NCBI GenBank assembly: GCA_965219685.1
Contig: CBDCOH010000002.1
Span: 2,400,001 to 2,464,000, forward strand
Source: Candidatus Spongiisociaceae bacterium
GTDB lineage: Bacteria; Actinomycetota; Acidimicrobiia; Spongiisociales; Spongiisociaceae
DNA length: 64,000 nt
Direction: 5' to 3'
The notes below the pieces were generated by a model, which worked only from the letters and a program-made list of their open reading frames with translations, ran no database searches and was not told the origin of the DNA. Of the stretch, positions 5,340 through 46,173 are shown piece after piece. How positions within the stretch are numbered: the stretch's first letter is position 1; every line of letters begins with the position of its first letter. The translations under genes were made by a program, and so were the position numbers.

Positions 5340-5373
5340 CGATATCGGATCACGATATCGAGTGTCGAGGGCC
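5340..5373. promoter_or_regulatory. CGATATCG-N5 operator array, site 1
   Basis: CGATATCG gatca CGATATCG agtgt CGAGGGCC in the divergent SDR-remnant/MmgE gap, just after a TACAGT -10-like hexamer. Confidence 0.8.
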
Positions 5374-5394
5374 TTGCGCGGAGGCAAGAACCGG

Positions 5395-6711
5395 ATGGAC
5401 CGCAACCCGCTGGATGTACTCGCCGACCACATACTCGAGCTCAGGTTCGAGGCGATACCCGACCAGGTGATAAGGCAGGCGAAGGCCGTCATACGCCACG
5501 ACCTGGCAGTCGGGATGCTCGGCAGCGGCACCGACGAGGCCCTTAGAGCAGTGGATTTCGCGACTTCGACGGGCAATTCGGGCTCGTCGACCGTAATCGG
5601 GCACCGGATGACACTGGCTCCGATCGACGCGGCGTTCGCCAACGCGGTGATCATGCGCTCGCTCCGGCAGGAGGATTCGATCCTCCCTTCGTTCATCCAC
5701 CCCGGTCCCATGGTCATACCCCCCGCCCTGGCGATCGCCGAAGCACGCGGGCTTGCCGGACACGAGGTGATCACCGCGGTGGTAGCGGCCTACAACGTGC
5801 TCGGAGTGTTGGCCGGATCGGAATGGACGTGGGAGAAGTGCGCCCGCACGCCTTCCCATGTATACGGCGCTTTCGGAGCGGCAGCCGTTTCGGCCCGGCT
5901 CCTGGGTCTGGACCCCGATCAGACGCGAACGGCGCTGGCTTACGCCGGTAACTACGGCGCGATGATCACCCACGGTTTCCACAACCACCAGTACGGCGTC
6001 CTGGCCCGTAACGGTATGACCGCGGCCGGACTCGGGCGAGCTAGGGCCCCTTACAGGGAAGATGCTCTCGAAGGGCCGCACGGCTTCTTCGAAGCCCAGG
6101 TCGGCGCAGTGCGGCCGAGCCTCCACGAGGACCTGCAAGGAGTCGGAAGGCGCTGGGAGATCATGACCGCCGTTCTCAAGCCCTACCCGTGCACGGCGAT
6201 CAACGTGGTACCGCTCACTCTGATTGAAGAGTTGTTGAGACGGGAAGGACTCTCCGCCGACGGGGTTGCCCGGCTGACGGTACGGAGATCGAGAGATTCG
6301 TTCCGCGTTCCCGGGATCAACGACCCTGATCCGCATGCGAAGGAGTTCGGACGGGTCAGTTCGCTGCAGTTCAACCTGGCGGTCATGCTGCTGCGAGGAT
6401 CGGTGACACCGGAGTCTCATAGGGATCCCGACCTCGCCGAACGTGCCGCCGGCCTGGCGGGCATCATCCGGATCGAGCCTTCCGCCTCGACGGACCTACT
6501 CCACCACGAGGTACTCCTGACCGCATCGGACGGACGCCGGTTCCGTGTCTCCGGAGGTGCGGAGGTCCTGGCCGCGCCCCGACCGGTGGCCATCGCGCGG
6601 ATGTATCCCGGGAGCGACTCGACGGCAGCCCGGATCGAACGGATGGTCTCCGAGGTCCATCAACTCGACTCGGCCGACCGCGTAACCGGGTTGATGCGAT
6701 GCGTCGCGTGA
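5395..6711 (+). CDS. MmgE/PrpD family protein (1)
   Basis: IPDQVIRQAK, DAAFANA, IHPGP..IPPALAIAE, LEGPHGFF, KPYPC. Confidence 0.88.
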   Translation: MDRNPLDVLADHILELRFEAIPDQVIRQAKAVIRHDLAVGMLGSGTDEALRAVDFATSTGNSGSSTVIGHRMTLAPIDAAFANAVIMRSLRQEDSILPSFIHPGPMVIPPALAIAEARGLAGHEVITAVVAAYNVLGVLAGSEWTWEKCARTPSHVYGAFGAAAVSARLLGLDPDQTRTALAYAGNYGAMITHGFHNHQYGVLARNGMTAAGLGRARAPYREDALEGPHGFFEAQVGAVRPSLHEDLQGVGRRWEIMTAVLKPYPCTAINVVPLTLIEELLRREGLSADGVARLTVRRSRDSFRVPGINDPDPHAKEFGRVSSLQFNLAVMLLRGSVTPESHRDPDLAERAAGLAGIIRIEPSASTDLLHHEVLLTASDGRRFRVSGGAEVLAAPRPVAIARMYPGSDSTAARIERMVSEVHQLDSADRVTGLMRCVA

Positions 6712-6811
6712 CCACCGGCGCAGCGGGGCCGGGTCGTAACGACCGGTCGGGAGTCACGGCCGCGCTGTTAGCGTGCCCCGAACCCGAACCCCGGCGCGGG
6801 GAGGAGCCGCC

Positions 6812-7180
6812 ATGATGGAAGACCTGATCGCGAATACCTACGACGTGATCGACGCCAACCCGGTCCTCGCGGGCGAGACCTTCCGGGTAACCCACCTTCA
6901 ACGAACCGAGAGATCCACGAGCGCGGTGTGCTCCATCGAGGCGGGCGGGGGCCTACGACCGCACATCCACCACCACCACGACGAGGTCATCGTCTTCCTG
7001 GAAGGCGAAGCCGACTTCCGCCTCGGCGACGAGATACGGCAGGTGAGAGCCGGTGATGTGGCGGTCGTACCGGCCGGAACCGCACACGCCACTATGAACG
7101 CCGCCACCCGTGTGGTCATAGCCGCGGTCTTCGCTCCCAACTTCGATCCCGAGAACGAGGACCGCGAGTACGTCGACTGA
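6812..7180 (+). CDS. Cupin domain protein
   Basis: PHIHHHHDEVIVFLEG and GDVAVVPAGTAH cupin motifs; GGAGGAG RBS. Confidence 0.88.
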   Translation: MMEDLIANTYDVIDANPVLAGETFRVTHLQRTERSTSAVCSIEAGGGLRPHIHHHHDEVIVFLEGEADFRLGDEIRQVRAGDVAVVPAGTAHATMNAATRVVIAAVFAPNFDPENEDREYVD

Positions 7181-7348
7181 CCGTCTGGGTGTCAGGTGAT
7201 TGTACGGATTCCTGACATCTTCGACTGCCGAAGTCGACCGGCATAACGAGCAAGGTGCGGTAGCCGTTTACGGCAACCGGCAACCCGCACCTGACTGCCG
7301 CCGCGGCCGGTTGGGAAGCGAGCCGGTGGGCCACGTAGTGTGGTGCCC

Positions 7349-8554
7349 ATGGCATCGACCGCGCCACCGGATAGGCCGCGCTCCGCCGACGTCTCCCCGG
7401 CAGATCCCGGGTTCCTGGAGCGGATCATCGGTCTGCGGCGAGAATTGCACCGCCATCCGGAACTCTCGGAGCAGGAGGAGCGGACTGCCGGTCTCATCTG
7501 CTCGTTTCTGGAGGAACTCGGAATCCCTTACCGGGCCGGGGTCGGAGGGAACGGTGTGGTGGCGCGTTTGAGCGGCCGCAAGGTCGGGCCCGTGGTGGCC
7601 CTTCGAGCCGATATCGATGCCTTGCCGATACGGGAGGAGACCGGGCTCCCGTTCGCTTCGGCGGTCGAAGGCGTGATGCACGCCTGCGGCCACGACGGCC
7701 ACACCGCCATGCTGATGGGCGCGGCGATTCTGCTCCGCGCAGAGCCTCCCCCTTACCCGGTCCGGCTCCTGTTCCAGCCGGCCGAGGAGCGCGGGAGCGG
7801 GGCGCGGATGATGATCGCGGACGGGGCTATCGACGGGGTATCCGCCGTCTTCGGCGGACACCTGGACATCAACTACCCGGTCGGAACGCTGGTGGTCAGC
7901 GATGGAGCGGTCAACGCAGCGTCCGACTACTTCACGATCCGTATCAAGGGCAGGACGGGACACGCCGCCAGGCCTCACCAAGCGGTGGACGCAGTGGTTG
8001 CCGGGGCGTCGCTGGTGAGCGCACTCCAGACGATCGTCGCTCGAGAGGTAGACCCAGCAGATCCGGCGGTGCTCACGGTGGGAAGTTTCACCGCCGGAAC
8101 CGCCGAGAACGTAATCGCCGGCGCCGCCAGGCTCACTGGGACCATCCGTACCCTCGACCCCGAGGTACGCCGGCATCTCTGTGACTCGGTGGTCCGGATG
8201 GCCACCGCGGTCGCGCAGTTGCATGGCTGCGCGGTGGAACCGGAGGTGCGAGAGGGTAACCCACCAGTCGTCAATGCCCCGGCTATTACGCGGTTGGCCC
8301 GGCAGGCCGCGTCGGCGGTCGTGGAGGACACCGGCTTGCTACAGATGCACACCGTCAACATGGGATCCGAGGACTTCGGGCGATACCTGGAGAGGGTTCC
8401 CGGCTGTTACATCCGGTACGGCGGTCTCACGCCCGGTCATGAACCGTCGCCAGCCCATTCGGGCCGTTTCGACTTCGATGAGCGGGCGCTCGGCATCGGG
8501 GCGCGATGGCTCGACAAGGTCGCACGGGTAGCGGGCGAGGAACTGGCCCGCTAG
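7349..8554 (+). CDS. M20D-family amidohydrolase
   Basis: LHRHPELS, LRADIDALPI, MHACGHDGH, FQPAEE, GSEDF. Confidence 0.93.
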   Translation: MASTAPPDRPRSADVSPADPGFLERIIGLRRELHRHPELSEQEERTAGLICSFLEELGIPYRAGVGGNGVVARLSGRKVGPVVALRADIDALPIREETGLPFASAVEGVMHACGHDGHTAMLMGAAILLRAEPPPYPVRLLFQPAEERGSGARMMIADGAIDGVSAVFGGHLDINYPVGTLVVSDGAVNAASDYFTIRIKGRTGHAARPHQAVDAVVAGASLVSALQTIVAREVDPADPAVLTVGSFTAGTAENVIAGAARLTGTIRTLDPEVRRHLCDSVVRMATAVAQLHGCAVEPEVREGNPPVVNAPAITRLARQAASAVVEDTGLLQMHTVNMGSEDFGRYLERVPGCYIRYGGLTPGHEPSPAHSGRFDFDERALGIGARWLDKVARVAGEELAR

Positions 8555-8558
8555 CTAC

Positions 8559-9671: not shown

Positions 9672-9672
9672 C

Positions 9673-11684: not shown

Positions 11685-11706
11685 GTTCGGGAAGGCTACA
11701 GTGTGT

Positions 11707-11740
11707 CGATAACGAATCACGATATCGGATGTCGAGACCA
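11707..11740. promoter_or_regulatory. CGATATCG-N5 operator array, site 2
   Basis: CGATAACG aatca CGATATCG gatgt CGAGACCA between divergent pdhA and ferredoxin; TACAGT at 11697. Confidence 0.8.
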
Positions 11741-11796
11741 TCGGTCGGGAGGGCAGGAATGCACCGCCGTCCCGTGCCGGGTCAGCGGGGATTCAA

Positions 11797-12601: not shown

Positions 12602-12635
12602 CGGTATCGGGCTACGATATCGCCAATCAAGGTCG
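12602..12635. promoter_or_regulatory. CGATATCG-N5 operator array, site 3
   Basis: CGGTATCG ggcta CGATATCG ccaat CAAGGTCG upstream of the ABC operon. Confidence 0.78.
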
Positions 12636-12664
12636 CCGCCGGAGAGAACCAGAGGAGGCGGGCT

Positions 12665-17000: not shown

Positions 17001-17034
17001 GGATATCGTGAGTCGTTATCGGGATGTGATACCA
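17001..17034. promoter_or_regulatory. CGATATCG-N5 operator array, site 4
   Basis: GGATATCG tgagt CGTTATCG ggatg TGATACCA upstream of the substrate-binding protein gene. Confidence 0.78.
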
Positions 17035-19725: not shown

Positions 19726-19726
19726 G

Positions 19727-20362: not shown

Positions 20363-21429
20363 GCCACCGCCTCCCGGATTTCCTCAGGGGTCATACCATC
20401 AATCCCCATGTCCTCCAGCGAGCGACCTTCACTCCGGTAGTCCCTTCCCGTGGCGGCCCCCGCCAGAGTGATGACCGCGTCGATCACCGGAGTGCGGACA
20501 CCGACCAGCCGGGCCATCCGGGTCATCGGAACCAAGCCCAGCGGCACGTCCTCGGTGACGTAACGGCCCCGCATCCCGTCCGGGACGGAGATACCCCTCA
20601 TGATGTTCGATGCCAACTTCCTCTCCACCTCCATGGCGTCGGACCCGACGATACCGTAGGAGCGCTGCAGCCAGGCCTGATGGCTCCTCACCGGGACCCC
20701 GAGCGCCAGGCCGGCCTCCATCCTCTCGGCATCCAACGCCTCCATGGCACGGACGACCGACGGCGTCAACCCGTCGGCGTAGAAGTCGAAGAGGCCCCCG
20801 TCCATGGAACCGGCGTTGAGCACCGCCACGACCGGGTGCGCCACCGGGTTCATGTTGTCGAAGCTCGTCTCCAGGACGGAGCCGGCCGCCTCGACATCCG
20901 GGAAGGCATGAGCGAGCAGTTCGAGCACTTCCGGGGTCTTCGAGGCACCCAAGGCCGCGACCGAGAAGACCTTCTTGACCCCGCCCACATGCACCGTCCC
21001 CGGCTCCACCACCCGGCACGCGTAGGCGAGGGTGTTGGTCTCGGCCAGGCGAACGCTGGACGGAACTCCGATGTCCGACCAGGTCCTCCCCACCTCCAAG
21101 GCTCCTCCGAATCCGCCCGGGTGGAGCACCACCGTCTCGCCTCCGTCGAGGACCGCCGCCAGTTCGGTCGCTATGTACCGGTGCGCGAAGCCGGGGACAG
21201 ACACGAGGATCAGGTCGGCGCCCGAGATGGCCCTGCCCATGTCGGTGGTGGCCATCTCGATGGGACCGGTCTCCTCGATCGCTCCGCTCGCCCGGACCCT
21301 GCCCAGCGAGGAGAGCGGCCCGACTACGTCGGAGAAACGATCGTAAAGCCTCACCGAGTGACCGGCGTATCCGAGGCGTGCGGCAGTGGACTGGCCACCG
21401 TTACCGGATCCGAGAATCGCTACCCGCAT
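20359..21429 (-). CDS. NAD/NADP octopine/nopaline (opine) dehydrogenase family
   Basis: ILGSGNGG, LAETNTLAYACR, NMNPVAHP, RYVTEDVPLGLVP. Confidence 0.9.
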   Translation of the reverse strand: MRVAILGSGNGGQSTAARLGYAGHSVRLYDRFSDVVGPLSSLGRVRASGAIEETGPIEMATTDMGRAISGADLILVSVPGFAHRYIATELAAVLDGGETVVLHPGGFGGALEVGRTWSDIGVPSSVRLAETNTLAYACRVVEPGTVHVGGVKKVFSVAALGASKTPEVLELLAHAFPDVEAAGSVLETSFDNMNPVAHPVVAVLNAGSMDGGLFDFYADGLTPSVVRAMEALDAERMEAGLALGVPVRSHQAWLQRSYGIVGSDAMEVERKLASNIMRGISVPDGMRGRYVTEDVPLGLVPMTRMARLVGVRTPVIDAVITLAGAATGRDYRSEGRSLEDMGIDGMTPEEIREAVA

Positions 21430-24161
21430 ACGTCCACCATAACTTTCAGGAGGGTCGAGGCATCGTGCACCGTTTCCAGCCTGTCGACCAGATCCAGAAC
21501 CTCCGCGACCCGACCCCGGGAACCGGCAGGCAAGGCGGCCTCCAACGAGACTCGCCGGCTCGCGCGATATGTCGGCAGGACCGAGAGCCCCCCTTGAAGT
21601 CTCTCAACCCGGCCGGAACTCGTGGTCACCGTCACCCTGGCGGAATATGGATCGTCGAAGTGCCGGTAGTTAAGTCTTACACCCGCCGGCAGAGGCGACC
21701 TCGCGGCGGCCGAACCCGGCCCCATAACCACTTCTGCCGGTTGCCTCCCCTCCATCAGCCGCGCGACCTTCAGGCGCAGCACGTCGGCCTGGGACATCCG
21801 GCGATCGAAGCCCGGGAGGCTGCACCGGGCGGAGGCGTCCCAGCGCCTGCGAATCTCGGGGAGCGAGACCTCCGCCGCAACGGGTCTCTCCTTCTCGGTC
21901 GCCAGCATGGCCGACAAGCGGCCGGCCAGTTCGATGGGGACGAGGTGGTTGTGATCGACGGAGTGCCGGCTGACGATGGCCTCGTCGAGTCCGAACCTGG
22001 CGCCCAGTCGCGACAGCGCCTCGTCCAGGCCTGCCGGAACCGAACCCAGAGTCGACCTGTACAAGCCGAACTCACCCTCGATCATCAGGTCGGCGGCCGG
22101 GAACCCCGCCTCGGCGAGGAGCGCAGCGAAGACACCGTTGCGAGCCAGTTGTGCATTGACGACTGCTTCCTCCTCGACTCCCTCGATCAGTCCCATGGTC
22201 AGGTGACAGGCCTGTCCCATGGCGTCGGCTGTGAGTTTCTCGTCCAGTCCGAGCAGGCGGGCCGCCATACAGGCAACCGCTACTGGCCCGAACACGCAAT
22301 CAGCCCGGCGGGCCGTCGCGGTCCCCCACGCCCAGGTGCCGGCGGACAGCGCGAGGGCGACGTCGTAGCCGATGGCGATGGCCACCAGCAGTTCCCTCCC
22401 CGGGACGTTCCGGTCCTCGCTCAGTGCCAGCGCGACTGGAATGGTCATGGCCCCCGGACGGAGACCCCCGGCCATACTGTCCTGCCAACCCCGGGCCTGC
22501 ATGCTCAGCGAATTCGCAAACACCGCGTCCAGGAGGCGGAGAGTGGGACGCTGGCCTATGAAGGAATACCTGCCGGGTCTCCCGGTCCGTGGATCAGCCG
22601 CGGACGACCGACCCTGCAACGCCAGCGCGAGATGGTGGACGAGTAGATCCTTGCCCCGGTCAATGACCGCAGGAGGGAAATCCCGGTACCTGGCTCCGGC
22701 CGTGTAGGCGGCTATCCGCTGGGAAGCCGTCCGGCCCGGGACACGATCAAGACCCCAGAAGACCCCTGGCGCCGGATCGGCTCGGGTGGCGAACCGGTCA
22801 AGCGCAGTCCACAGGCCGGCGGCACCGTGCGACTCCTCGAGCCCCTCAACCGAGGTCACCAGGTGTTCGATCGCGGGCGAAGGGGCTGCCGGGAGGAGAT
22901 CGGCCAACCATTCCCTGTGGTCCATGGGAGGGGTCGGGGAAGCGGCATGACTCTCCCGGACATGCCGCCGGCCGTTGGTGGTGACAACCGTTAGGCGAGC
23001 CGAGCGTAGAGGCAACCCGTGCACGTAGTCCAAGGATGTCCGATCGACCAGATCCAGGAATCCCGCGGGCATGTCCTCGCGGTACCGGGCCGGATTCAGT
23101 TCCCCATCCCACAGCCACGCGGCCACCAGGAACCGGGGAGACGCGTAACGGCTGATATACCGGCGTTCACCGGCGTCCCGGTACCGGCGGAAGTTGCGGT
23201 CGAAGTCCTCCTCGCGAGGCCGACGCTCTTCGGGAAGCGTGAGGTGGATCAAGGCGACGTCGGGCACGGTTATCCCAGTGGTCCGGATCAGGTCGTCCAT
23301 CAACTCGACCGGCACGACGTTGAAACCGCTGCACCGGTAACGCTTCCGGAATGCGTGCGAGATCCCGAAGTCCGTTCCCAACCCGTCCATTGCCGAGACG
23401 ACCTCTCCGGGAACCTCTCCCAGGTAGGTCTCGTACAGACCGAAAGGACCCTCGAGAATCGATGGAGTGGATCGGACCCCGGCCGAAGCCAGCAGAGCAG
23501 CCTCAACCCCGTTGCGCGTGATCTGCGGATAGAGGACCCGAGCGAACGGAGTCCCCTCGATGAGGCCGACCGCACCGTTGGCCGCCAGTCCCAGCGCGTG
23601 AGCCGTCCGATCCGCACCGAACCCCAGTAGGCGCGACGCTACCGCCGCCACGCCCACCGGACCCACCACGCAACCGGAACGGCGGGGCGTGCTAACCCCC
23701 CAGGTCCAGGTGCCCCGGGCAAGGGCCACAAGGAGGTCATACCCGACCGCCACGGCTGACAGAAACTCCCGACCGGTGATGGGTCTCGTCTCGGCGAGCG
23801 CCAGGACGGTGGGGAAGACCAGCACGCCCGGGTGGGTGCCCCCCAGGGCCGCGTCGTCCAACGCATCCTCGCCCATGAGCAACGAATTGACGAACACCGC
23901 CTCGAGCAACCCGTACCTGCCCCTTGCGCCCAGAACCCTGTGTCGCCCCCCTCCATCCGATAGCCTTCCGGCCAGAGACCGTGCCCTCCCCGCGCTCGGG
24001 TTTCCGGTGGCGGCCAGAGCAAGACCGACATGGTGCACCAGGTGATCCTTGGCGAGCCCGACCACGTCGGGGGGGATCGCCTCGAACGGGAGTCCCGACA
24101 CGTGGCTCGCCAACCTTCGGGTTAGAGAGACGGCTGGTTCACCGGCGGTCGGCATCGACAT
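21420..24161 (-). CDS. Tandem double-domain MmgE/PrpD protein
   Basis: Two full repeats (AKDHLVHHVGL...THPG...LEGPFGLY; GKDLLVHHLAL...LRPG...IEGEFGLY); start ATG 24161 or 24155. Confidence 0.85.
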   Translation of the reverse strand: MSMPTAGEPAVSLTRRLASHVSGLPFEAIPPDVVGLAKDHLVHHVGLALAATGNPSAGRARSLAGRLSDGGGRHRVLGARGRYGLLEAVFVNSLLMGEDALDDAALGGTHPGVLVFPTVLALAETRPITGREFLSAVAVGYDLLVALARGTWTWGVSTPRRSGCVVGPVGVAAVASRLLGFGADRTAHALGLAANGAVGLIEGTPFARVLYPQITRNGVEAALLASAGVRSTPSILEGPFGLYETYLGEVPGEVVSAMDGLGTDFGISHAFRKRYRCSGFNVVPVELMDDLIRTTGITVPDVALIHLTLPEERRPREEDFDRNFRRYRDAGERRYISRYASPRFLVAAWLWDGELNPARYREDMPAGFLDLVDRTSLDYVHGLPLRSARLTVVTTNGRRHVRESHAASPTPPMDHREWLADLLPAAPSPAIEHLVTSVEGLEESHGAAGLWTALDRFATRADPAPGVFWGLDRVPGRTASQRIAAYTAGARYRDFPPAVIDRGKDLLVHHLALALQGRSSAADPRTGRPGRYSFIGQRPTLRLLDAVFANSLSMQARGWQDSMAGGLRPGAMTIPVALALSEDRNVPGRELLVAIAIGYDVALALSAGTWAWGTATARRADCVFGPVAVACMAARLLGLDEKLTADAMGQACHLTMGLIEGVEEEAVVNAQLARNGVFAALLAEAGFPAADLMIEGEFGLYRSTLGSVPAGLDEALSRLGARFGLDEAIVSRHSVDHNHLVPIELAGRLSAMLATEKERPVAAEVSLPEIRRRWDASARCSLPGFDRRMSQADVLRLKVARLMEGRQPAEVVMGPGSAAARSPLPAGVRLNYRHFDDPYSARVTVTTSSGRVERLQGGLSVLPTYRASRRVSLEAALPAGSRGRVAEVLDLVDRLETVHDASTLLKVMVDVCG

Positions 24162-24189
24162 CGGACTACGATATCGGTTGCCGAGATCA
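24156..24189. promoter_or_regulatory. CGATATCG-N5 operator array, site 5
   Basis: CGACATCG gacta CGATATCG gttgc CGAGATCA between divergent MmgE genes. Confidence 0.8.
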
Positions 24190-28926: not shown

Positions 28927-28960
28927 CGATATTGGGATGCGATATCGAACTTCGAGCATT
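28927..28960. promoter_or_regulatory. CGATATCG-N5 operator array, site 6
   Basis: CGATATTG ggatg CGATATCG aactt CGAGCATT in a divergent gap. Confidence 0.78.
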
Positions 28961-31426: not shown

Positions 31427-32407
31427 TCAGCGGGGCGCCGGGCCCTTCGAGAGCTGCTCCAAACCCCTGCGTATGGCCGCACGCTCCGCACTGGCGCCGA
31501 CCCTTCCCAGCGCCAGGCCGTGCCGTTCCCGCACCAACTCGATCCGCTCGTCCAATGGAAGCAACGGGCAGTTCTGACACAGCCGACCCCGGCGATCGTC
31601 CAACCGGTAGGTGAGACAGCACGCATGGCGGCGGTGGATGCCGTGGGGGAACATCGGGTCGTCGATCTCATCCCACACCACGAGGCCTCGCAGGGGGTTG
31701 GGTCCCGGTACCCCCGGTATGGCCGGAGCGCCCAGCAGGGCTCGGCGGTCCTCCACGTAGGGTCGGCCGGCCCCGCCTAGGTACTCGTCGGCCGAGTCCG
31801 AGACCATCCCCACCCATTCGGCCGCGTTGGTCCACAGCAGACGTTCCGAGACCCGCGTCAGGCTCCGGACAACCTCGAAGAAGGGCGCCAGGTGCCGGCC
31901 GTACAGGGTCTCCCAGGCATGCGCCCTGACCTCGGCCAGAGTTGCAGCGGCTTGGGCGTCCACCTTCCACGGCGTGAGCCGCTCGCCGGTCACCACTGCT
32001 CCCTCTCCGAGATCGTCCAGCACCAGTGCGAACGGGAGGGACACACGGGTGAGGATCCTGCAATGGCGCGGCGAAAGGTCCAGGGCCACTCCGTTGGCCA
32101 GGGCACATAATGCCGCAACGGTTAGGCAACCGGTGTAATGGCGGGTCAGCCGTGAGACGGCGATCCGCAGATCGATGTCCACCTCTGAGCGGTCATCCAG
32201 ATGATCCGCCGGATCCGCGAACAGCAACTCGCGGTCCACCGTATGGGACGCGGCGATCGCCCGTCGCAGGAAGTCCGGTTCGAAGTAGCGAGTGGCCGGA
32301 ACGGCCTCTGGAGACGCCGGGTCGTCGAGTAGGTAACGCCCCTCGAACCAACGCCCGAGCCGTCCGATGCCGTCCGCCAGGGACCGCTTCCAATCCTCGG
32401 TCGGCAT
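31427..32407 (-). CDS. FhuF-like (2Fe-2S) ferric-chelate reductase domain protein
   Basis: ERLLWTNAA and C-terminal RRHACCLTYR...LCQNCP (CC-x-C-x2-C); ATGA overlap with the chrA stop. Confidence 0.75.
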   Translation of the reverse strand: MPTEDWKRSLADGIGRLGRWFEGRYLLDDPASPEAVPATRYFEPDFLRRAIAASHTVDRELLFADPADHLDDRSEVDIDLRIAVSRLTRHYTGCLTVAALCALANGVALDLSPRHCRILTRVSLPFALVLDDLGEGAVVTGERLTPWKVDAQAAATLAEVRAHAWETLYGRHLAPFFEVVRSLTRVSERLLWTNAAEWVGMVSDSADEYLGGAGRPYVEDRRALLGAPAIPGVPGPNPLRGLVVWDEIDDPMFPHGIHRRHACCLTYRLDDRRGRLCQNCPLLPLDERIELVRERHGLALGRVGASAERAAIRRGLEQLSKGPAPR

Positions 32408-33654
32408 CAGAGCGTAGCGAGCAGGCCACCGCCGGCCGCGGTCAGGATGACGACCAGCCAAGGGGGAAGTTTCCAGAAAGCCAGGAGCCCCAGCGCGACG
32501 AGCGCGAGCCCGAAGTCCTCGGGACCGAGGATGGCGCTCGACCAGAGAGGATCGTACAGGGCGGCCAGCAGGACCCCCACCACTGCTGCGTTGACCCCGC
32601 GCAGGACTGCCTGCACCTCGGGGCGTGCGCGGAGGGCCCCGAAGGTGGGGAGGGTGGCGACCACTATGAGGAAGGAGGGCAGGAAGATGGCCAGGAGGGC
32701 CAGGAGAGCACCACCGACCCCGTTCGGCTCGGTACCAAGGGAGGCGCCGAGATAGGCCGAGAACGTGAATATGGGCCCCGGCACAGCTTGGGCCGCACCG
32801 AATCCGGCGATGAAGGTCTCATCGTCGACCCAACCCGGTCCGACCACCTCGCTCTCGAGCAAGGGCAGGACGACAGGGCCTCCGCCGAACACCAGTGCCC
32901 CGGAACCGTAGAAGGCGTCAGCCGTCCCGATGGCCGGAGCGTCGAACGCCGCCCTGGCCACCGGCAGCAGGGCCAACAGCGCGAAGAACAGGACCGCGCT
33001 GACAATCGCAGCCCGGCGTCCTGATCCGAGTTGGTACGAGCGGGCAGCAGCGGCTTCCCGGCGCAGGAAGAACCAGCCCACGATCCCGCCCAGGATGATG
33101 ACGACCACGATCGTGGTCCGCGCCGACGAGGGAAAGGCGATCACCGCCAGCGTTGCCAGGACCGCCATCGAACTGCGGAACCGGTCCGGCGCCAGCTGGC
33201 GCCACAGCTTCCACACCGCCAGGCCGACCACGGGAACGGCCACCACCACCAGCCCGTGGATCCACCCGGCCGCCTCCTCGGTGAGACGCGAAGCCGTCAG
33301 GCCCAGCACCGTCATGATCACGGCCGAGGGCAAGGTGAACCCGAGCCAGGCGATGACCCCGCCCCACAGACCACCCCGAGCCATCCCGATGGCCATGCCC
33401 AGCTTGCTGCTACCGGCGCCCGGGAACGCCTGCGAGAGGGCAACGAGGTCGGCGAAGGTCTCCTCATCGACCCAGCGGCGCCGCTGGACGTACTCGTCCT
33501 GGAAGTAGCCGATGTGGGCGATTGGGCCACCGAAGGAGGTGAGCCCGAGGCGCAGAGCCACCCAGAAGATCTCGACCAGCGGCCCTCGTTCCGGGATGAA
33601 AGTAGCCGGGGCAGGGCCGGCGTGGTGGTCGTTCGGGTTGCTATCGTCCGTCAC
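32407..33654 (-). CDS. chrA: Long-chain chromate efflux transporter, copy 2
   Basis: LGLTSFGGPIAHIGYF, FGGGPVVLPLL, AQAVPGPIF; visibly close paralog of 3510..4754. Confidence 0.92.
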   Translation of the reverse strand: MTDDSNPNDHHAGPAPATFIPERGPLVEIFWVALRLGLTSFGGPIAHIGYFQDEYVQRRRWVDEETFADLVALSQAFPGAGSSKLGMAIGMARGGLWGGVIAWLGFTLPSAVIMTVLGLTASRLTEEAAGWIHGLVVVAVPVVGLAVWKLWRQLAPDRFRSSMAVLATLAVIAFPSSARTTIVVVIILGGIVGWFFLRREAAAARSYQLGSGRRAAIVSAVLFFALLALLPVARAAFDAPAIGTADAFYGSGALVFGGGPVVLPLLESEVVGPGWVDDETFIAGFGAAQAVPGPIFTFSAYLGASLGTEPNGVGGALLALLAIFLPSFLIVVATLPTFGALRARPEVQAVLRGVNAAVVGVLLAALYDPLWSSAILGPEDFGLALVALGLLAFWKLPPWLVVILTAAGGGLLATL

Positions 33655-33682
33655 CGGTATCCCCTAGTCATGCATCGCGGGC

Positions 33683-33703
33683 CAATATCGGGCTACGATA
33701 CCA
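33683..33703. promoter_or_regulatory. CGATATCG-N5 operator array, site 7
   Basis: CAATATCG ggcta CGATACCA between divergent chrA and padR. Confidence 0.72.
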
Positions 33704-33752
33704 GGCATCCGAATGGCGAACCGCGACGGACCAGCGACGAACAGGCGGCCAG

Positions 33753-34130
33753 ATGAGCAGGACCGACCGAATCGAGGGCCATCCCACCTTCGAGGCCCAT
33801 AGCAGGCTCTTCCGCGACATCCTGCTGGGTTTCGTTAGGGTGCATGTGCTCCACTGCGCCAGTAGAGGTCCCGTCTACGGGGTGGCGCTCAACGAGGAAC
33901 TCGCGGTCCACGGCTACAACCTGTCGCCGGGAACCCTCTATCCACTCCTCCACGGACTCGAGGACATCGGGTTTCTCGAGCGGACTCCGGAAGTCGTCGG
34001 CGGCAAGGTACGGAAGTACTACTCGCTGACCGACCGGGGACACCAGGCGCTTGAGGATCTCCGTTACAAGATTCGCGAGTTGGTCAGCGATGTGCTGGAT
34101 GGCGAGACCGTACCGGCGGGCTCCCGGTAG
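33753..34130 (+). CDS. PadR-family transcriptional regulator
   Basis: LGFVRVHVLH, VYG...EEL..HGYNLSPGTLYPLLH.LE, RKYYSLT..G. Confidence 0.92.
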   Translation: MSRTDRIEGHPTFEAHSRLFRDILLGFVRVHVLHCASRGPVYGVALNEELAVHGYNLSPGTLYPLLHGLEDIGFLERTPEVVGGKVRKYYSLTDRGHQALEDLRYKIRELVSDVLDGETVPAGSR

Positions 34131-34193: not shown

Positions 34194-35132
34194 ATGAGGA
34201 TCGGGCTGATGGCATCGATCTCTGCTGCCGGCGAGCCGACCCTCGAGAACATCACGGCAACCATCGTCCGGGCTGAAGCAACCGGGTTCGACACCGTTTG
34301 GACTTCGGGACGGATGGACGCCCTGACGCAACTGGCTCTCGCCTCGGTACGCACTAACCGTGTCGAGCTTGGCACGGCCATCGTGCCCACCTATCCCCGC
34401 CATCCGCACGCCTTGGTCCAGCAGGCCCTGACAGTCCAGATCGCCTGCGGCGGCAGACTGGCGCTCGGCGTTGGGGTGAGCCATGACACTTCGATGTCAT
34501 CCCTTGGTTTCGACTGGTCTGCGCCGGTCCGCCACGCCCGCGAGTACCTGAGCGGTCTGAATGGGTTGCTGGCAGGAGCGGAGGTTACGTTCGAAGGGAC
34601 CGACTTCTCCCTCTCGAATGCAACCGCGCCGCTCGCCCACCTGACGGCCGTCCCCCCGGTTCTCCTGGCTGCGCTGGGTCCGCAGATGCTGCGGGTGGCC
34701 GGAACGCTTTCCGACGGGACCGTCCTCTGGCTCAGCGGCGCGCGCTATGTGAGAACGGTGGCGGTGCCGGAGATCGCGGCCGCGGCGAAACGAGCCGGCA
34801 AACCCCCGCCGCGGGTGGTGGCAGGAGGTCCGGTGTGCGTGACCGACGATGCGAAGGCATCCTACGAACGCGCCGAACGCGTCCTGCACGCCATCGGGAA
34901 CAGGCCGGTCTACCGGTCGGTACTGGACCTCGACGGTTCGGCCAGCCCGGCCCAGGTAGCCCTGATCGGCGACGAAGCCCTCGTCGGTGAACGTCTTGAC
35001 GAGTTGGCCGAGGCAGGCGCCACCGACTTCGCCGCCCAGATCCTCGCCGCCTCTCCCGAGGAGTACGAGCGGACCCATGCCTTCCTGGCGGGCCGCGCCG
35101 GGACTGGTCACCGTGCCGGCACGGGTCGGTGA
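34194..35132 (+). CDS. LLM-class (F420-dependent-like) oxidoreductase
   Basis: ELGTAIVPTYPRHP, RLALGVGVSH, LAALGPQMLRVAG. Confidence 0.88.
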   Translation: MRIGLMASISAAGEPTLENITATIVRAEATGFDTVWTSGRMDALTQLALASVRTNRVELGTAIVPTYPRHPHALVQQALTVQIACGGRLALGVGVSHDTSMSSLGFDWSAPVRHAREYLSGLNGLLAGAEVTFEGTDFSLSNATAPLAHLTAVPPVLLAALGPQMLRVAGTLSDGTVLWLSGARYVRTVAVPEIAAAAKRAGKPPPRVVAGGPVCVTDDAKASYERAERVLHAIGNRPVYRSVLDLDGSASPAQVALIGDEALVGERLDELAEAGATDFAAQILAASPEEYERTHAFLAGRAGTGHRAGTGR

Positions 35133-35139: not shown

Positions 35140-35160
35140 CGATATCGGGCTACGATAACG
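35140..35160. promoter_or_regulatory. CGATATCG-N5 operator array, site 8
   Basis: CGATATCG ggcta CGATAACG upstream of the membrane protein gene. Confidence 0.8.
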
Positions 35161-35202
35161 GTTGGACGGCAGTCAAGGTGAGAGAAAGCGAGGAGGCCGG
35201 TT

Positions 35203-36921: not shown

Positions 36922-36942
36922 CGAAGTCGGCTACCGATATCG
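36922..36942. promoter_or_regulatory. CGATATCG-N5 operator array, site 9
   Basis: CGAAGTCG gctac CGATATCG followed by TAATAT, in a divergent gap. Confidence 0.7.
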
Positions 36943-36979
36943 GATAATATAAGGGTGGCCTGCCGGATGGAGAGACCTC

Positions 36980-38105: not shown

Positions 38106-38464
38106 TCACAGCCGCACCGAGGGCAGCCGCCTCAACTCGCGGTTGACGGGATCGACATGGATTCCAGCAGACTCCAGCGCAGTGGCGCCCAACAGCGGCT
38201 CGGAGTGGGGTTTGCCGAAGATCACGGTCGCGCCGACCGTCTCTCCCATGATCTCGAACTCGGCAACCGTGACATCGAACCGGACTCTGTACCGTCGGCA
38301 AGCTCGTACCCGCGAGTGCTCCGTGGCGTCAGGCCTATGGATTCGAGCCACGGTCCGGGAACCGACGAGTCGATGGCTCCCGTGTCGACCAGAAACCGAC
38401 CTCGCCACTCCTGCTCCGGCGCGCCAGGATTCCGTACGATGATGTTTGCGTAGGTCATGCCCAT
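38106..38464 (-). pseudogene. Clan AA aspartic protease (AF_0612-like), frameshifted
   Basis: MGMTYA...LVDTGA...YELADGT in one frame continues RVRFDV...EPLLGATALES in another; one base missing near 38289. Confidence 0.8.
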
Positions 38465-38703
38465 GGACTCTCCTTTGGGGTAGCGACTATAATGCAGTTA
38501 ATCAGATATCAACAATTGCAGAATACTGTTACAACCGGGTCGTAAGGCTCGATTACTCAAACGACAACCAGCAATGACCCCCGGGCGCTGTTGCTCGTGC
38601 TGCCCTATCGATGCGGGTTCGAGCGCGCCGTCCGGTCGGCGACCGGACGGCCTCGCGTACCGGGATAGGCGCCGCCCCGCTATCGAACTCGGTATGGGGC
38701 CGG

Positions 38704-39528: not shown

Positions 39529-39546
39529 CGGTCCTCCTTCCGTGCT

Positions 39547-41256: not shown

Positions 41257-41271
41257 CGGAGGGTGTCTCCT

Positions 41272-41305
41272 TGAACTCGCGAACCGATATCGGAGGACGT
41301 TACCG
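41272..41305. promoter_or_regulatory. CGATATCG-N5 operator array, site 10
   Basis: TGAACTCG cgaac CGATATCG gagga CGTTACCG in a divergent gap. Confidence 0.75.
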
Positions 41306-41371
41306 ATGCACTAGGGTGGTGTCAATCGGCGTCCGCCGGGCACGATCATCGCCGAACCAAAGGGTAGGACC

Positions 41372-42556: not shown

Positions 42557-42562
42557 CGCTGG

Positions 42563-43747
42563 TCAGGGAAGGAGCGCGTCGGCGGCCGCTTCGATACGTT
42601 CCATCGCCTCGTCGAGGCGGGCATCGGGAATGGTGAGGGAGAACCTGACGTAACCCTCGCCGTAGCGGCCGTAGCCGATTCCCGGGATCGCCACCACCGC
42701 GGTGTGCTCGAGTAACCGGGTGAAGAAGTCCATGCTGCCGATCCCTGTGGGGAGGGGCGCCCACACGTAGAAGGTTCCGGGAGGCGGATCCACCTCCAGG
42801 CCGATCCGGCGCAGGGTGGCCACCACCCTGTCGCGTCTCCGCCGGTAGATAGTCATCTTGGCCCGTAACACGGAGTCGGGAGTCCCGAGGGCGACGATAG
42901 AAGCCTGCTGGACGGCGCCGAACACGCCGGCGTCCGTGTTCAGCTTCATGCTCCGGATCATGCCGACGATCTCGGGATTGCCGACCGCCATCCCGCTGCG
43001 CCACCCGGTCATGTTGTAGGACTTGGACAGGCTGTTGAACTCGACGGCGACGTCCTTGGCCCCGTCGACGGACAGGACACTGGGCGCCGGAACGCTTCCG
43101 AACGTGATATCTGCGTAGGGGTTGTCGCTCACCAGGATGGTGCCCGTCCGGCGGGCGAACTCCACCGCTTTCGCGAAGAACTCGAGCGAGGCGACCGCCG
43201 CAGTCGGATTGTTCGGATAGGAGATCCAGATGGCCCTTGCGCTGGTCGCGAGGTCCCGGGGAATCGAGTCGAAATCGATGAGGAATCCGTTCTCGGCCAG
43301 GAGCGGCACCTTTCGCACCTCGGCCCCCGCCAGGATGGCGGCCGCCTCGTAGGCGGGGAAGGCAGGATCGGGAACAAGGACCACATCCCCCGGGTTGAGG
43401 GCACCCATACAGAAGTGGAGGTTTGCCTCCTTGCTGCCCATCAAAGGCAGCACATCGGTTTCGGGATCGACGGCGACATCGAACCGGCGCTCGTACCAGG
43501 CGGAGATCGCGGAGCGGAACTCCGGCAACCCGCGGGCCAGGCCATGGGGATACTGGTGGTTCACCGGATCCTGGGCCGCTTCCAGGAGAGCCTCCACCAC
43601 ATGCGGCGGGGTCGGGAGGTCGGGGTCGCCCTTCCCCAGGTCTATCACATCCCGACCCGCCTGGAGGGCCTCCGACACCCGGCGATGTATCTCCACGTAG
43701 ACATAAGGCGGTAGGGATTCGAGGCGCTGAGATCTGGCCAGGTCCAT
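42563..43747 (-). CDS. Class I aminotransferase, LL-diaminopimelate aminotransferase-like
   Basis: LPPYVY, IDLGKGDPD.PTP, GSKE, YPNNPT, SLSKSYNMTGWR. Confidence 0.85.
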   Translation of the reverse strand: MDLARSQRLESLPPYVYVEIHRRVSEALQAGRDVIDLGKGDPDLPTPPHVVEALLEAAQDPVNHQYPHGLARGLPEFRSAISAWYERRFDVAVDPETDVLPLMGSKEANLHFCMGALNPGDVVLVPDPAFPAYEAAAILAGAEVRKVPLLAENGFLIDFDSIPRDLATSARAIWISYPNNPTAAVASLEFFAKAVEFARRTGTILVSDNPYADITFGSVPAPSVLSVDGAKDVAVEFNSLSKSYNMTGWRSGMAVGNPEIVGMIRSMKLNTDAGVFGAVQQASIVALGTPDSVLRAKMTIYRRRRDRVVATLRRIGLEVDPPPGTFYVWAPLPTGIGSMDFFTRLLEHTAVVAIPGIGYGRYGEGYVRFSLTIPDARLDEAMERIEAAADALLP

Positions 43748-43782
43748 CGGCAGGTCCACGGAGTCGGCGGTCCCGGTGAGGC

Positions 43783-43816
43783 TAGCATCGAGACCCGATA
43801 TCGGTACACGAAACCG
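43783..43816. promoter_or_regulatory. CGATATCG-N5 operator array, site 11
   Basis: TAGCATCG agacc CGATATCG gtaca CGAAACCG in a divergent gap. Confidence 0.75.
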
Positions 43817-43830
43817 GGTGAGGAGCGGCG

Positions 43831-45225
43831 ATGGGGACGGGTGGGGTAGGCCATGGACAGCTGGAGCGAAGCGGCCGCGACTTCGCCCCGGTGCCTTACC
43901 CGACCCAGACCGAACGGCTCGCCGCACATGTGGTGGGGCTCCGTTACGACGACATCCCGCGACCCGCCGTGGACAAGATGAAGGACCACATCGTCCATCA
44001 CCTCGGACTGGCCCTGCGGGGTCTCGGCACCGGAGAAGGCCGCCAAGCCATCCGGATCGCCGAGTCCTTCCGCCATGGGGGATCTGCCACCATCGTCGGC
44101 AGGCGAACCCGGACGGCTCCCCTGGAGGCCACCTTCGCCAACACGACCCTCATGCGTTCCGACTTCCTCGACGATGTGCTCTTTCCCGCCGGTGTCCACG
44201 CCGCTCTCGTGACCCTCCCACCTGCGCTGGCCGTCGCAGAGGAACGCCATCGGTCCGGAAAGGAGTTGCTCACCGCCCTGGTCGCCGCCTACGACGTGAT
44301 CGGCAAGCTGGGAAACGCGGCCGGAATACGCTCGGCGAGGGCGCCGAGAAGACCGACAATTCCCTTCGGACCCTTCGGCGGCGCGGCGGCGGTCGCCCGC
44401 CTGCTCGGCTTGTCGAAACACCCGACCGCCCACGCCCTGGGCTACGCGGCGCACTCGGGCATGGGCCTCAGCGAGGGTGATTTCGTCACTCACTACTACA
44501 GCCTGGTGGCCAGGAACGGCCTGATGGCAGCGCTGGCGGCCGACCATGGGGGGCAAGCGGCCCTGGCGGTGATGGAGGGTCGGTTCGGCTTCTGGAACAC
44601 ATTCTTCACGGGAGTTCCCCCGACCCTGGACGACTCGCTCGCCACCTTGGGTAAGGAGTTCGAGATCATGAACGCCACGACCAAGCGTTACCCGGGTACG
44701 GGGCTGAATATCGTCCCGATCGAACTCACCACCCACTTGGTGGAGGACCATTCCCTGACCGTTGCGAATACCCGCTCGGTGACCGTGTTCCTGCCCGCCG
44801 AGCGGGAGAGCTTCGTCACGGGCCACATGCAGCCCCCCTTCGAAAGCGAAGCGGCGGCCCGCAGCTCGCTGGTTCTGGCCATCGCCACCATCCTCGCGAC
44901 CGGCCGGATCGACCCGGCGCTTGTCAAGCAGTACGCCCGTCCGGATCTGGTGGAACTCTGCAGCCGGATCCGCGTGGTCCTGGAGGAGGGCCATCCCATC
45001 CGCTACGCCCGGATCGAGATCGCCACCCGCGACGGACGCTCGCTAGCCGCCCAGGGACATGACCACTCCTTCGATCCGGCGGAGTGGCTCCGCTGGATCT
45101 CCATCGGCGGAACCGATGTCCTCGGACGCGATGCGCTCGCCGCGCTGGTGGAGACAATGGATCGCCTCGAAGACCTTGACGACGTAGCCGACTTGACAAC
45201 CTTGCTCCGACCTCCCGATAGTTGA
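43831..45225 (+). CDS. MmgE/PrpD family protein (4)
   Basis: MKDHIVHHLGL, EATFAN, DFLDD..PAGVH, MEGRFGF, KRYPG. Confidence 0.88.
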   Translation: MGTGGVGHGQLERSGRDFAPVPYPTQTERLAAHVVGLRYDDIPRPAVDKMKDHIVHHLGLALRGLGTGEGRQAIRIAESFRHGGSATIVGRRTRTAPLEATFANTTLMRSDFLDDVLFPAGVHAALVTLPPALAVAEERHRSGKELLTALVAAYDVIGKLGNAAGIRSARAPRRPTIPFGPFGGAAAVARLLGLSKHPTAHALGYAAHSGMGLSEGDFVTHYYSLVARNGLMAALAADHGGQAALAVMEGRFGFWNTFFTGVPPTLDDSLATLGKEFEIMNATTKRYPGTGLNIVPIELTTHLVEDHSLTVANTRSVTVFLPAERESFVTGHMQPPFESEAAARSSLVLAIATILATGRIDPALVKQYARPDLVELCSRIRVVLEEGHPIRYARIEIATRDGRSLAAQGHDHSFDPAEWLRWISIGGTDVLGRDALAALVETMDRLEDLDDVADLTTLLRPPDS

Positions 45226-45361
45226 TAGATGATAGTTGATAATTGATAGTTTCCGTTAGATCGGATCATTCACCATCCTCAATAGCAAGGCACTATCCAT
45301 CGATGAGCCACCAGCCATTAGCAAAACTCACAACTACTAACTAATAACTACCAACTATTAA
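45217..45361. repeat. Two facing heptamer arrays between convergent genes
   Basis: + strand GATAGTT GATAGAT GATAGTT GATAATT GATAGTT (45217-45251); CTCACAA CTACTAA CTAATAA CTACCAA CTATTAA (45327-45361). Confidence 0.8.
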
Positions 45362-46082
45362 GTAGCTCCCGTCCGAACAGTGACTGATGGGTCGACGTCA
45401 CCAGGGAGTAGAGATCGAAGATGGGGAGGCCGGTCGCGCGCCGCATCGCGTTGCCCCAAGGAACGAAGTTCGTGCACTCGAGGACGATCGCGCCCACATC
45501 AGGATGCTCCTCGACCTGGCGGCGAGCCAGCGCCACCAGCTCTGCCTCCAGCACGGCGGTGTCGGCGACAACCGTCTGGTCGATGTACACCTGTGGGAAG
45601 ACGGCATCCCTCGGCATGGATGTGACGACCGTGTCGACTTCCCCCGGTTGCCAGCCCATGCCGACGAAGTGGCGGTCGGTGAGGTGCGGGCGTTCGGTCA
45701 GGATCCCGACCTTCCGTCCCGGCCCGACGAGCCGGCCCGCCAACGGGACCTGGAGCAGGGCGGAGGTGAGCATCGGGACGCCGACGCTCGCCTGCATCGC
45801 CCGGTGGAAGACCGATAGGAAACCACAGCTGGTGGTGATCGCCCTCACTCCCTTCGCCTCCAACTCTCTCGCGCCTTCGATGAAGGGGGCGAGCAGCGTC
45901 GGGTCGGGCTCCGAACCCATGATCCTGCTCGTGTCGGCCCCCTTCACGACCTTGTAGAGAACCGGGAACGGCCACGTCAGGGCGTTTCCCACGTCGCCGG
46001 GTGGTCTGGGACAGGTCGTGTCGAGCATGAGGATCCCGATGTCGTGGCCGTAAACGGTACGGCCGCCTTTCACTATCGCCAT
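45348..46082 (-). CDS. Asp/Glu racemase-family protein (2)
   Basis: GGRTVYG, GILMLDT, TSCGF, ECTNF. Confidence 0.85.
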   Translation of the reverse strand: MAIVKGGRTVYGHDIGILMLDTTCPRPPGDVGNALTWPFPVLYKVVKGADTSRIMGSEPDPTLLAPFIEGARELEAKGVRAITTSCGFLSVFHRAMQASVGVPMLTSALLQVPLAGRLVGPGRKVGILTERPHLTDRHFVGMGWQPGEVDTVVTSMPRDAVFPQVYIDQTVVADTAVLEAELVALARRQVEEHPDVGAIVLECTNFVPWGNAMRRATGLPIFDLYSLVTSTHQSLFGRELLNSW

Positions 46083-46139
46083 CGCCCTCCTTCAGCCACG
46101 GGCGCCAGACCCCCACTCGGGAGCCCGAGACTATCAACC

Positions 46140-46173
46140 TGATTACGAACCCCGATATCATGATCCGAGTTCG
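46140..46173. promoter_or_regulatory. CGATATCG-N5 operator array, site 12
   Basis: TGATTACG aaccc CGATATCA tgatc CGAGTTCG in a divergent gap. Confidence 0.72.

Follow-up and report, generated by a model that had tools for sequence, protein, structure and literature searches.

We examined a stretch of 64,000 nucleotides (the window) from the genome of a Candidatus Spongiisociaceae bacterium (assembly GCA_965219685.1, contig CBDCOH010000002.1, positions 2,400,001 to 2,464,000 of the forward strand; coordinates below count from the first base of the window). The window harbors a gene island whose promoter regions carry a recurrent 8-bp palindrome, CGATATCG, and a gene for a small PadR-family regulator, which we propose as the repressor acting through this motif. 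As the G+C content of the window is 65-68%, genes were called by third-position G+C; starts near the motif sites were refined by ribosome-binding sites, and products were annotated by Pfam and NCBIfam. The probable regulon island spans positions 3510 to 51925 and comprises ~43 genes in ~21 transcription units, counted on both sides of the 12 operators that they adjoin. An initial annotation of this DNA had described a single regulon of ~47 kb. One island is indeed present, but the likely regulon ends not at 46.2 kb but at ~51.9 kb, with the operon of site 12, and starts at ~3.5 or 5.4 kb, its left end being uncertain between a CHR (chromate-ion-transporter family) gene at 3510-4754 and site 1. 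The left flank encodes an ECF sigma factor, tRNA-Thr, an acyltransferase and a TrkA-type channel, and the right flank a trypsin-like peptidase (51965-52663) followed by O-methyltransferase, holB, tmk, major facilitator superfamily (MFS), topA and Mrp antiporter genes.

The motif forms twelve sites, all of them intergenic once gene starts are set by ribosome-binding sites (scores in bits are those of an independent weight matrix described below). Nine sites (1, 2, 5, 6, 7, 9, 10, 11 and 12) lie in divergent gaps and occupy 9/9 of the divergent gaps between 4.7 and 47 kb, as had been claimed. Site 1 (5340..5373, 35.5 bits) has units at 5340, 5353 and 5366 and is followed, after 21 nt, by the ATG (5395) of an MmgE/PrpD-family gene. 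Site 2 (11707..11740, 32.2 bits) separates a minus-strand 2-oxoacid dehydrogenase E1-alpha gene from plus-strand ferredoxin-HesB genes. Site 5 (24156..24189, 26.0 bits) lies between a double MmgE/PrpD gene on the minus strand and an MmgE/PrpD-racemase-CHR operon on the plus strand (ATG 24238), and site 6 (28927..28960, 22.1 bits) in an 82-bp gap between a D-amino-acid-dehydrogenase-like gene (minus, ATG 28918) and a CCG-domain gene (plus, ATG 29001). Site 7 (33670..33716, 16.7 bits) occupies the 98-bp gap between a minus-strand CHR gene and the plus-strand PadR gene. A Bcr/CflA-type MFS efflux gene (minus) and a CCG-domain gene (plus) flank site 9 (36922..36955, 15.6 bits); a thiamine diphosphate (ThDP)-dependent enzyme gene (minus) and an acyl-CoA dehydrogenase gene (plus) flank site 10 (41272..41305, 26.5 bits); and an aminotransferase gene (minus) and an MmgE/PrpD gene (plus, ATG 43831) flank site 11 (43783..43816, 21.8 bits). 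Site 12 (46140..46173, 19.9 bits) lies between a racemase-like gene (minus) and an operon of AcnX, racemase and three Ldh_2 genes (plus, ATG 46199, to 51925).

The remaining three sites are in co-directional gaps: site 3 (12602..12635, 18.2 bits) before an operon of Opp-type permeases (ATG 12665), site 4 (17001..17034, 20.7 bits) before the gene for the 749-aa family-5 solute-binding protein of the Opp system (ATG 17103), with a TTGACA 16-21 nt upstream of the site, and site 8 (35140..35173, 17.3 bits) 8 bp past the stop codon of an F420/LLM oxidoreductase gene and 29 nt before a gene for a 137-aa membrane protein (GTG 35203). All but one of the nine divergent gaps are short (72-136 bp), and the 34-bp operators lie 14-68 nt before plus-strand start codons and 8-67 nt from minus-strand starts. 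The 640-bp gap to the left of site 1 contains a minus-strand open reading frame (ORF; 4856-5326) matching the first ~70 positions of short-chain dehydrogenase models only, probably a gene remnant.

The PadR-family gene (33753..34130, plus strand, 125 aa) is the only transcription factor gene that the annotation found between 5 and 47 kb. Other island products weighed as possible regulators, namely the 137-aa membrane protein, a weak MOSC-like protein, a retropepsin-like ORF and the short-chain dehydrogenase fragment, did not look DNA-binding and were rejected. The PadR protein belongs to Pfam family PadR (PF03551; 67.1 bits over residues 32-101, cutoff 27), and its nearest solved structure by sequence is Rv3488 (5zhc; E 2.4e-21, 79.3 bits, residues 20-124). 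The recognition helix and wing (HGYxLSPGTLYPxLHxLE ... GGKVRKYY) are nearly invariant among 24 homologues, which fits a shared DNA specificity. The gene shares its 98-bp promoter gap with the divergent CHR gene (32407..33654, minus strand; Pfam Chromate_transp 245 bits, TIGR00937 307.8 bits), a pairing of the ChrI type, and is probably co-transcribed with the F420/LLM oxidoreductase gene at 34194-35132. The PadR start codon is 36 nt downstream of site 7. Its conserved block reads GCATCG-N5-CAATATCG-N5-CGATACCA, so that the operator of the regulator itself is a weaker variant, CAATATCG-GGCTA-CGATACCA. Only 2 substitutions occur in these two 8-mers across 7 genomes; such near-invariance of a weak site suggests tuned autoregulation.

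We compared the frequency of the motif with that in shuffled sequence. Exact CGATATCG occurs 12 times in the window, as compared to a mean of 1.47 in dinucleotide-preserving shuffles, and none of 100 shuffles reaches 12. Ten of the 12 copies fall inside the sites; the other two are isolated, at 7609 within an M20 amidohydrolase gene and at 48601 at the end of a racemase-like gene. Both lack a phased partner and were rejected as sites, the former lying outside the top 32 matrix scores and the region of the latter (48588) scoring 0.7 bits. The paired motif CGATATCG-N5-CGATATCG, with up to 3 mismatches, has 17 matches in the window against 0.41 expected (0/100 shuffles reach 17), and 16 of these lie within the twelve sites, the 17th being 48601. 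Thus, all the sites that had been listed are present, each at the start coordinate given for it, far above chance. When aligned in register they show the 2-3 units per site and the strict 13-bp phasing (8 bp plus a 5-bp spacer) that had been reported, with the consensus cGAtATCGgg..a / CGATATCGg.... / CgAGa.cg over three 13-bp-phased units, and the spacer GGCTA recurs at sites 3, 7 and 8.

A search of genome contigs with the PadR protein returned 80 loci: L001 (PadR 99% identical), five orthologues (L002-L005 and L025, 75-89%) and 74 homologues (45-64%). We trained a weight matrix on 49 sites upstream of PadR genes, taken from loci other than those of the Acidimicrobiia and L006, a Jatrophihabitans bin. 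Applied to the window, this independent matrix gave its top 12 scores to exactly the twelve sites (15.6-35.5 bits), followed by a 13th at 3.0 bits; the highest score in 20 shuffles was 13.6 bits. No position in the flanks of the window exceeded 3.0 bits, and the sole divergent gap there (56.4-56.7 kb, between the MFS gene and topA) carries no site, in agreement with the earlier remark that the housekeeping flanks are free of the motif.

The alignment of sites across phyla indicates which part of the motif is maintained. Columns 4-8 (TATCG) and 14-18 (CGATA) are ~90% conserved, whereas columns 1-3 and 19-21 are variable; the unit 13 bp upstream retains only its 3' TCG, and the unit 13 bp downstream mainly its 5' CGATA. 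Since the inner halves are conserved and the outer halves vary, the selected element would be the inverted repeat TATCG-N5-CGATA. Judged from this pattern, selection acts on the inverted repeat formed across two neighboring units and not on each 8-bp palindrome. With half-site centers ~10 bp apart, this repeat is the kind of target that winged-helix dimers normally bind. The 13-bp pitch then amounts to a chain of inverted repeats, each overlapping the next by 2 bp. The initial annotation had envisaged tandem dimers, one per palindrome; this is probably the wrong register, as conservation sits in the inner halves TATCG and CGATA. The window holds 14 matches to TATCG-N5-CGATA at no more than 1 mismatch (0.90 expected); they are confined to 10 of the 12 sites, and sites 2, 4, 5 and 11 contain two overlapping copies each.

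A palindrome repeated at fixed distance might also function at the RNA level, by folding in 5' leaders into a hairpin (8-bp stem, 5-nt loop) that serves as an attenuator or processing site. Two self-complementary copies of the 8-mer can certainly pair, and 80.9% of the cells in the alignment form standard pairs. This fraction, however, matches the shuffled expectation of 81.6%, and covariation is lacking (0.102 against a shuffled mean of 0.112, with 413 of 500 shuffles at least as high), indicating that what is conserved is sequence and not pairing. Mismatches such as those in sites 2, 4 and 5 are uncompensated, and sites in divergent gaps serve both strands. We therefore give almost no credence to a role of the motif in RNA, and treat it below as a DNA element. 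An Rfam scan of the window returned a tRNA only.

We examined whether the sites are maintained in related genomes, locating orthologous gaps by tblastn of window proteins on L001-L005, L025 and L006, in all of which gene order is kept. The site is retained at 6/6 coverable orthologous gaps in L001, L002 and L003 and at 6/7 in L004. Sites 6 and 8 are kept in L001-L004, site 5 in L001 and L004, and site 11 in L002 and L003, and the gap of site 2 carries its site in L025 as well. The motif is the sole long conserved block in the alignments of the CHR-PadR gap (A1, 7 genomes) and of the MFS-CCG gap around site 9 (A5), the rest of the intergenic DNA in both being rich in substitutions, insertions and deletions. 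Likewise, it forms a conserved block in the gap of site 10 (alignment A4). Phylogenetic footprinting, which had been proposed as a check, thus finds sites at the same gaps in six related Acidimicrobiia genomes. A motif that exceeds chance, is confined to promoters and is conserved at orthologous promoters has the properties of a regulon under a single regulator.

These alignments also bear on whether the sites are simply a short dispersed repeat or promoter cassette, spread by paralogue duplication and recognized by no dedicated protein. Paralogue families make up the island (CHR1/CHR2 72% identical, racemase-like 50-55%, CCG 35-45%, Ldh_2 39-44%, MmgE/PrpD 27-40%), sites 1 and 2 are alike over ~45 nt, with TACAGT and bases of the spacer among them, and three sites have the spacer GGCTA in common, all of which would suit such a cassette. 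Yet the paralogues are old (27-55% identity, with one pair at 72%) and the core is near-perfect while spacers and flanks differ; furthermore, the same core is found in other phyla and in orthologous gaps whose remainder has diverged. A core kept amid diverged flanks points to selection on the core itself, and spreading of a cassette is in our view highly improbable.

The number of sites differs between Actinomycetota genomes. The L025 locus (1-20373) holds a ~10-kb mini-island with 2 sites and genes for cupin, M20, E2/E1, ferredoxin, HesB, D-amino-acid-dehydrogenase-like, CHR and PadR proteins. It has the same flanks as the window, a TrkA-type channel on one side and O-methyltransferase/holB/tmk/topA on the other, and the window island looks like an expansion of an L025-like core. 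In L006, whose PadR is 58% identical, five sites (2983, 9802, 13000, 14984 and 19422) lie among D-amino-acid-dehydrogenase-like, ferredoxin, CHR, Opp and CCG genes, so that a multi-operator regulon would exist outside the Acidimicrobiia as well. Together L025 and L006 suggest a regulon of differing sizes within the Actinomycetota.

The association between the motif and this PadR subfamily extends far beyond these relatives. Judged by their record titles, the 74 homologue loci come from Chloroflexota, Betaproteobacteria, Bacillota, Bacteroidota, Synergistota, Nitrospirota, Armatimonadota, two archaeal bins and others. Of these 74 loci, all outside the six close Acidimicrobiia relatives, 50 have the paired motif (at most 3 mismatches) between -300 and +60 relative to the PadR gene. 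Near PadR genes we counted 52 clusters in 26,161 bp (1.99 per kb), as opposed to 21 in 976,468 bp elsewhere (0.0215 per kb), a 93-fold enrichment. Of these 21 distant clusters, eight are found 0.9-1.25 kb upstream, at loci where the PadR gene is likely the second gene of an operon, and others adjoin the neighboring transporter gene. The DNA upstream of PadR genes (17,561 bp) contains 38 exact copies of TATCG-N5-CGATA, compared to 8 in the remaining 985,068 bp. When the spacing was varied from 0 to 15, the only exact TATCG-Nx-CGATA upstream of PadR besides x=5 was x=11 (4 times). The gene beside the PadR homologue among the 80 loci was CHR in 17 cases, MFS in 16, an ABC ATPase in 5 and a TauE-type exporter in 2, making CHR the commonest partner of this subfamily elsewhere; one example is a Bacillota padR-CHR operon (L040) with a PadR 51% identical. 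The motif had not been recognized from characterized regulons, and no published operator was found in the literature searched; it is, though, not private to this genome, being common to a PadR subfamily across phyla.

The same survey bears on whether the sites might be operators of another transcription factor encoded outside the window, the PadR gene being merely one of its targets. Binding of PadR to the motif is deduced from genomic association, and 24 of the 74 homologue loci have no pair with up to 3 mismatches at -300..+60, a figure that counts against our assignment and for such a factor. On the other hand, the motif follows the PadR homologue, with 93-fold enrichment and exact spacing, across bacterial phyla, archaeal bins and plasmids with unrelated neighbors, so that the unseen factor would need to co-migrate with PadR everywhere, and the annotation showed no other transcription factor gene between 5 and 47 kb. 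We regard a different factor as very unlikely. The link between motif and PadR is strong but not universal.

Together, these data make it highly probable that the motif is the operator of the ChrI/Rv3488-like PadR repressor encoded at 33753-34130, which would act through 12 operators on ~21 transcription units and ~43 genes. The earlier proposal that the operator of one repressor ties the island into a regulon of ~40 genes holds up well, as the motif accompanies the PadR gene in many phyla and persists at orthologous promoters. Several points, in addition to the 24 loci mentioned above, weigh against this assignment. Five of those 24 (L012, L013, L018, L044 and L079) have a best match with at least 6 mismatches and no nearby site. 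The sites used to train the matrix were chosen via the consensus of the initial annotation, which inflates the information content at the 16 specified positions; the TATCG-Nx-CGATA spacing scan is free of that consensus and hence of this bias. Motif scans covered the 64-kb window and the 20-kb homologue loci. The protein scores 95.1 bits (E 2.2e-27) against the NCBIfam Rv3488 family (NF053635, equivalog), below its cutoff of 140, and by this measure is a relative and not an equivalog of that family. The 2-bp overlap of adjacent repeats may sterically hinder simultaneous occupation by two dimers, and the island consists mostly of metabolic enzymes, unlike the single-exporter operons under this PadR subfamily elsewhere. 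Finally, what we say of binding and dimer register, of repression as opposed to activation, of co-expression and of the effector is inferred from sequence.

The position of the sites relative to promoter elements points to repression. As had been reported, -10-like hexamers adjoin or overlap several sites: TACAGT at 5328-5333 and 11697-11702, TAGCAT at 43783-43788 and TAATAT at 36945-36950. The first TACAGT is 6 nt upstream of site 1 and the second likewise precedes site 2; TAATAT follows site 9 and is conserved there; and TACGAT, formed by the spacer GGCTA or GACTA and the next unit, occurs within sites 3, 5, 7 and 8. A start codon at site 5 had also been noted, and an in-frame minus-strand ATG (24153-24155) does abut the site; that gene could instead start at GTG 24101, which has a better ribosome-binding site. 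In low-GC homologues the first unit comes immediately after a clear -10 (TATAAT, TATACT), or the array extends over the start codon of the operon that encodes the regulator. These would be repressor positions.

PadR might nonetheless bind the sites and work as an activator, or in both capacities, at a subset of the 12 promoters. In divergent gaps a single site is shared by two promoters and may sit upstream of one core promoter, and the E1-alpha gene (ATG 11684), 22 nt from site 2, has no ribosome-binding site. The placement of the site in low-GC homologues, directly after the -10 or over the start codon, is that of a repressor, and to our knowledge characterised PadR-family proteins are repressors. 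In addition, chrI-chrA1 of Bacillus cereus is induced, not shut off, by chromate (PMC2936356). Activation at any of the promoters thus appears unlikely, and we proceed with PadR as a repressor.

We propose the following mechanism. A PadR dimer would bind the inverted repeat TATCG-N5-CGATA, whose half-sites are extended in this genome to the 8-bp palindromes CGATATCG. With 2-3 units placed 13 bp apart, each 34-bp operator would contain two overlapping inverted repeats and could accept two dimers, or one dimer in either register. As the operators coincide with -10-like hexamers or closely follow them, and are centrally placed in short promoter gaps, bound PadR should block RNA polymerase in both directions. 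In this way the repressor would keep ~21 transcription units silent until an effector releases it, and would also repress its own gene via the weaker operator variant kept by all compared relatives. The usual partners of the subfamily (CHR, MFS, ABC and TauE exporters), together with the chromate induction of B. cereus ChrI, suggest that the effector is either a toxic oxyanion or a small molecule subject to export.

A bolder version, which we hold to be doubtful, is that a PadR that elsewhere guards a single exporter of oxyanions or drugs was recruited as master switch of a 47-kb metabolic island, through an operator design undescribed for the family: 8-bp palindromes chained at 13 bp, in which neighboring dimers share the central palindrome, load cooperatively on different helix faces and silence two divergent promoters at once. 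If this were true, TATCG-N5-CGATA would be a near-universal portable operator for the subfamily in bacteria, archaea and resistance plasmids.

The closest characterized system by gene context is ChrI of B. cereus SJ1, a PadR-family protein co-transcribed with chrA1, both being chromate-induced (PMC2936356); that study gives no operator or binding data, the terms 'operator' and 'binding site' being absent from it. Like ChrI, the window PadR is a small PadR-family protein encoded beside a CHR-family transporter gene. Its gene is divergent from the CHR gene, and 12 operators are proposed for it, as opposed to the one operon of the ChrI study. We would place the window PadR in the ChrI subfamily on gene context, rather than on the sequence of ChrI. 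By structure and NCBIfam, its best relative is Rv3488 of Mycobacterium tuberculosis (PadR subfamily 2; PDB 5zhc, 5zhv, 5zi8 and 7wh4). Kumari and colleagues reportedly found in 2018 that Rv3488 binds its own promoter, and Cd/Zn.

The canonical operator of the PadR/LmrR type is ATGT-N8-ACAT. The proposed operator resembles this type as an inverted repeat for a winged-helix dimer that lies over the promoter of the regulator or its neighbor and allows autoregulation. It differs in half-site and spacing (TATCG-N5-CGATA), in half-sites that are themselves halves of palindromes, and in their chaining at 13 bp; ATGT-N8-ACAT has 0 matches in the window, which places the motif outside the canonical class. 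The proposed regulon would also greatly exceed the one or two operons that PadR-family members usually control.

A further relative is the chrA-padR module of Enterobacterales resistance plasmids, whose PadR is 41% identical over 83% of the query and which 1906 plasmid records match. On an E. coli plasmid (L081, ~1228-1261), TTATATCG-N5-CGTTATCG-N5-CGCTTATT stands directly before chrA. As in the window, three units are phased at 13 bp; in contrast to the window, the module is AT-rich and has chrA followed by padR and a single operator, with a degenerate third unit. A Hydrogenophaga plasmid (L082, 276-4076) bears padR-chrA beside genes annotated as selenoneine biosynthesis (senB) and an enzyme of the SUMF1/EgtB/PvdO family, and here three units overlap the padR start.

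The literature search returned no paper on the regulation of the Enterobacterales module and no published description of a TATCG-N5-CGATA operator; subscription journals and preprint supplements were outside its reach, so that a printed description is possible. The string CGATATCG does occur in PMC6624303, as part of cloning primers, and among the 20 of 38 matching papers listed, no title concerned this motif. The kind of system (repressor, operator, regulon) is known, and the operator appears to be undescribed. The assignment would give a DNA target to a PadR subfamily that is widespread, poorly characterized in the literature examined, and includes the plasmid chrA-padR module, and one testable handle on a 47-kb, ~43-gene island in an uncultured Acidimicrobiia lineage, the purpose of which the ligand of the repressor should reveal. 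It would also provide an example of regulon growth, from one operator in most lineages to 2 in L025, 5 in L006 and 12 here. Once the effector is known, so compact an operator between divergent promoters could serve biosensors or synthetic circuits.

The genes under the proposed operators are mostly metabolic. Transport functions comprise four CHR genes, a Bcr/CflA-type MFS pump and an Opp-type ABC importer. Among the enzymes are five MmgE/PrpD (one of double length), three Asp/Glu-racemase-superfamily, three CCG-domain and three Ldh_2-family genes; AcnX large and small subunits; opine-dehydrogenase-like and D-amino-acid-dehydrogenase-like genes; 2-oxoacid dehydrogenase E1-alpha, E1-beta and E2, ferredoxin, HesB-like and FhuF-like genes; and genes for a ThDP enzyme, a DapD-like acyltransferase, an aminotransferase, an acyl-CoA dehydrogenase, an M20 amidohydrolase, a cupin and the F420/LLM oxidoreductase. 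NCBIfam names for these enzymes (sulfolactate-dehydrogenase-like, 3-sulfinopropanoyl-CoA-desulfinase-like, cis-3-hydroxyproline-dehydratase-like, D-amino-acid-dehydrogenase-like, LL-DAP-aminotransferase-like) are sub-threshold or family-level only. They do not decide between imino-acid/opine-type and organosulfonate-type catabolism, and we claim neither.

Several features of the island and its flanks were noted in passing. The double-length protein encoded at 21420-24155 on the minus strand has two MmgE/PrpD domains and is followed by the opine-dehydrogenase-like and weak MOSC-like genes. The small retropepsin-like ORF (38106-38468, minus strand; TIGR03698, 27 bits, below the cutoff of 57) lies beside an AT-rich stretch at 38480-38560. 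No DapD-like gene was detected by tblastn in L002 and L003, where the ThDP-enzyme gene comes immediately after the CCG gene and leaves no space for a DapD-like gene or the retropepsin-like ORF. The ORF called for the ECF sigma factor (842-1564, minus strand) overlaps tRNA-Thr(CGT) at 1528-1601, so that the real start of the sigma gene must be further downstream. In the AT-rich convergent gap between MmgE/PrpD and racemase-like genes, the heptamer GATAGTT is repeated five times in tandem (45217-45251) and a 14-mer 2.1 times (45332-45361); this region (45217-45361) gives weak matrix scores of up to 3 bits and is not a site. Further heptamer arrays, GTTAGGT repeated 4.4 times (59273-59303) and TCACCAT repeated 9.9 times with 98% matches (59331-59399), occupy the gap after topA.

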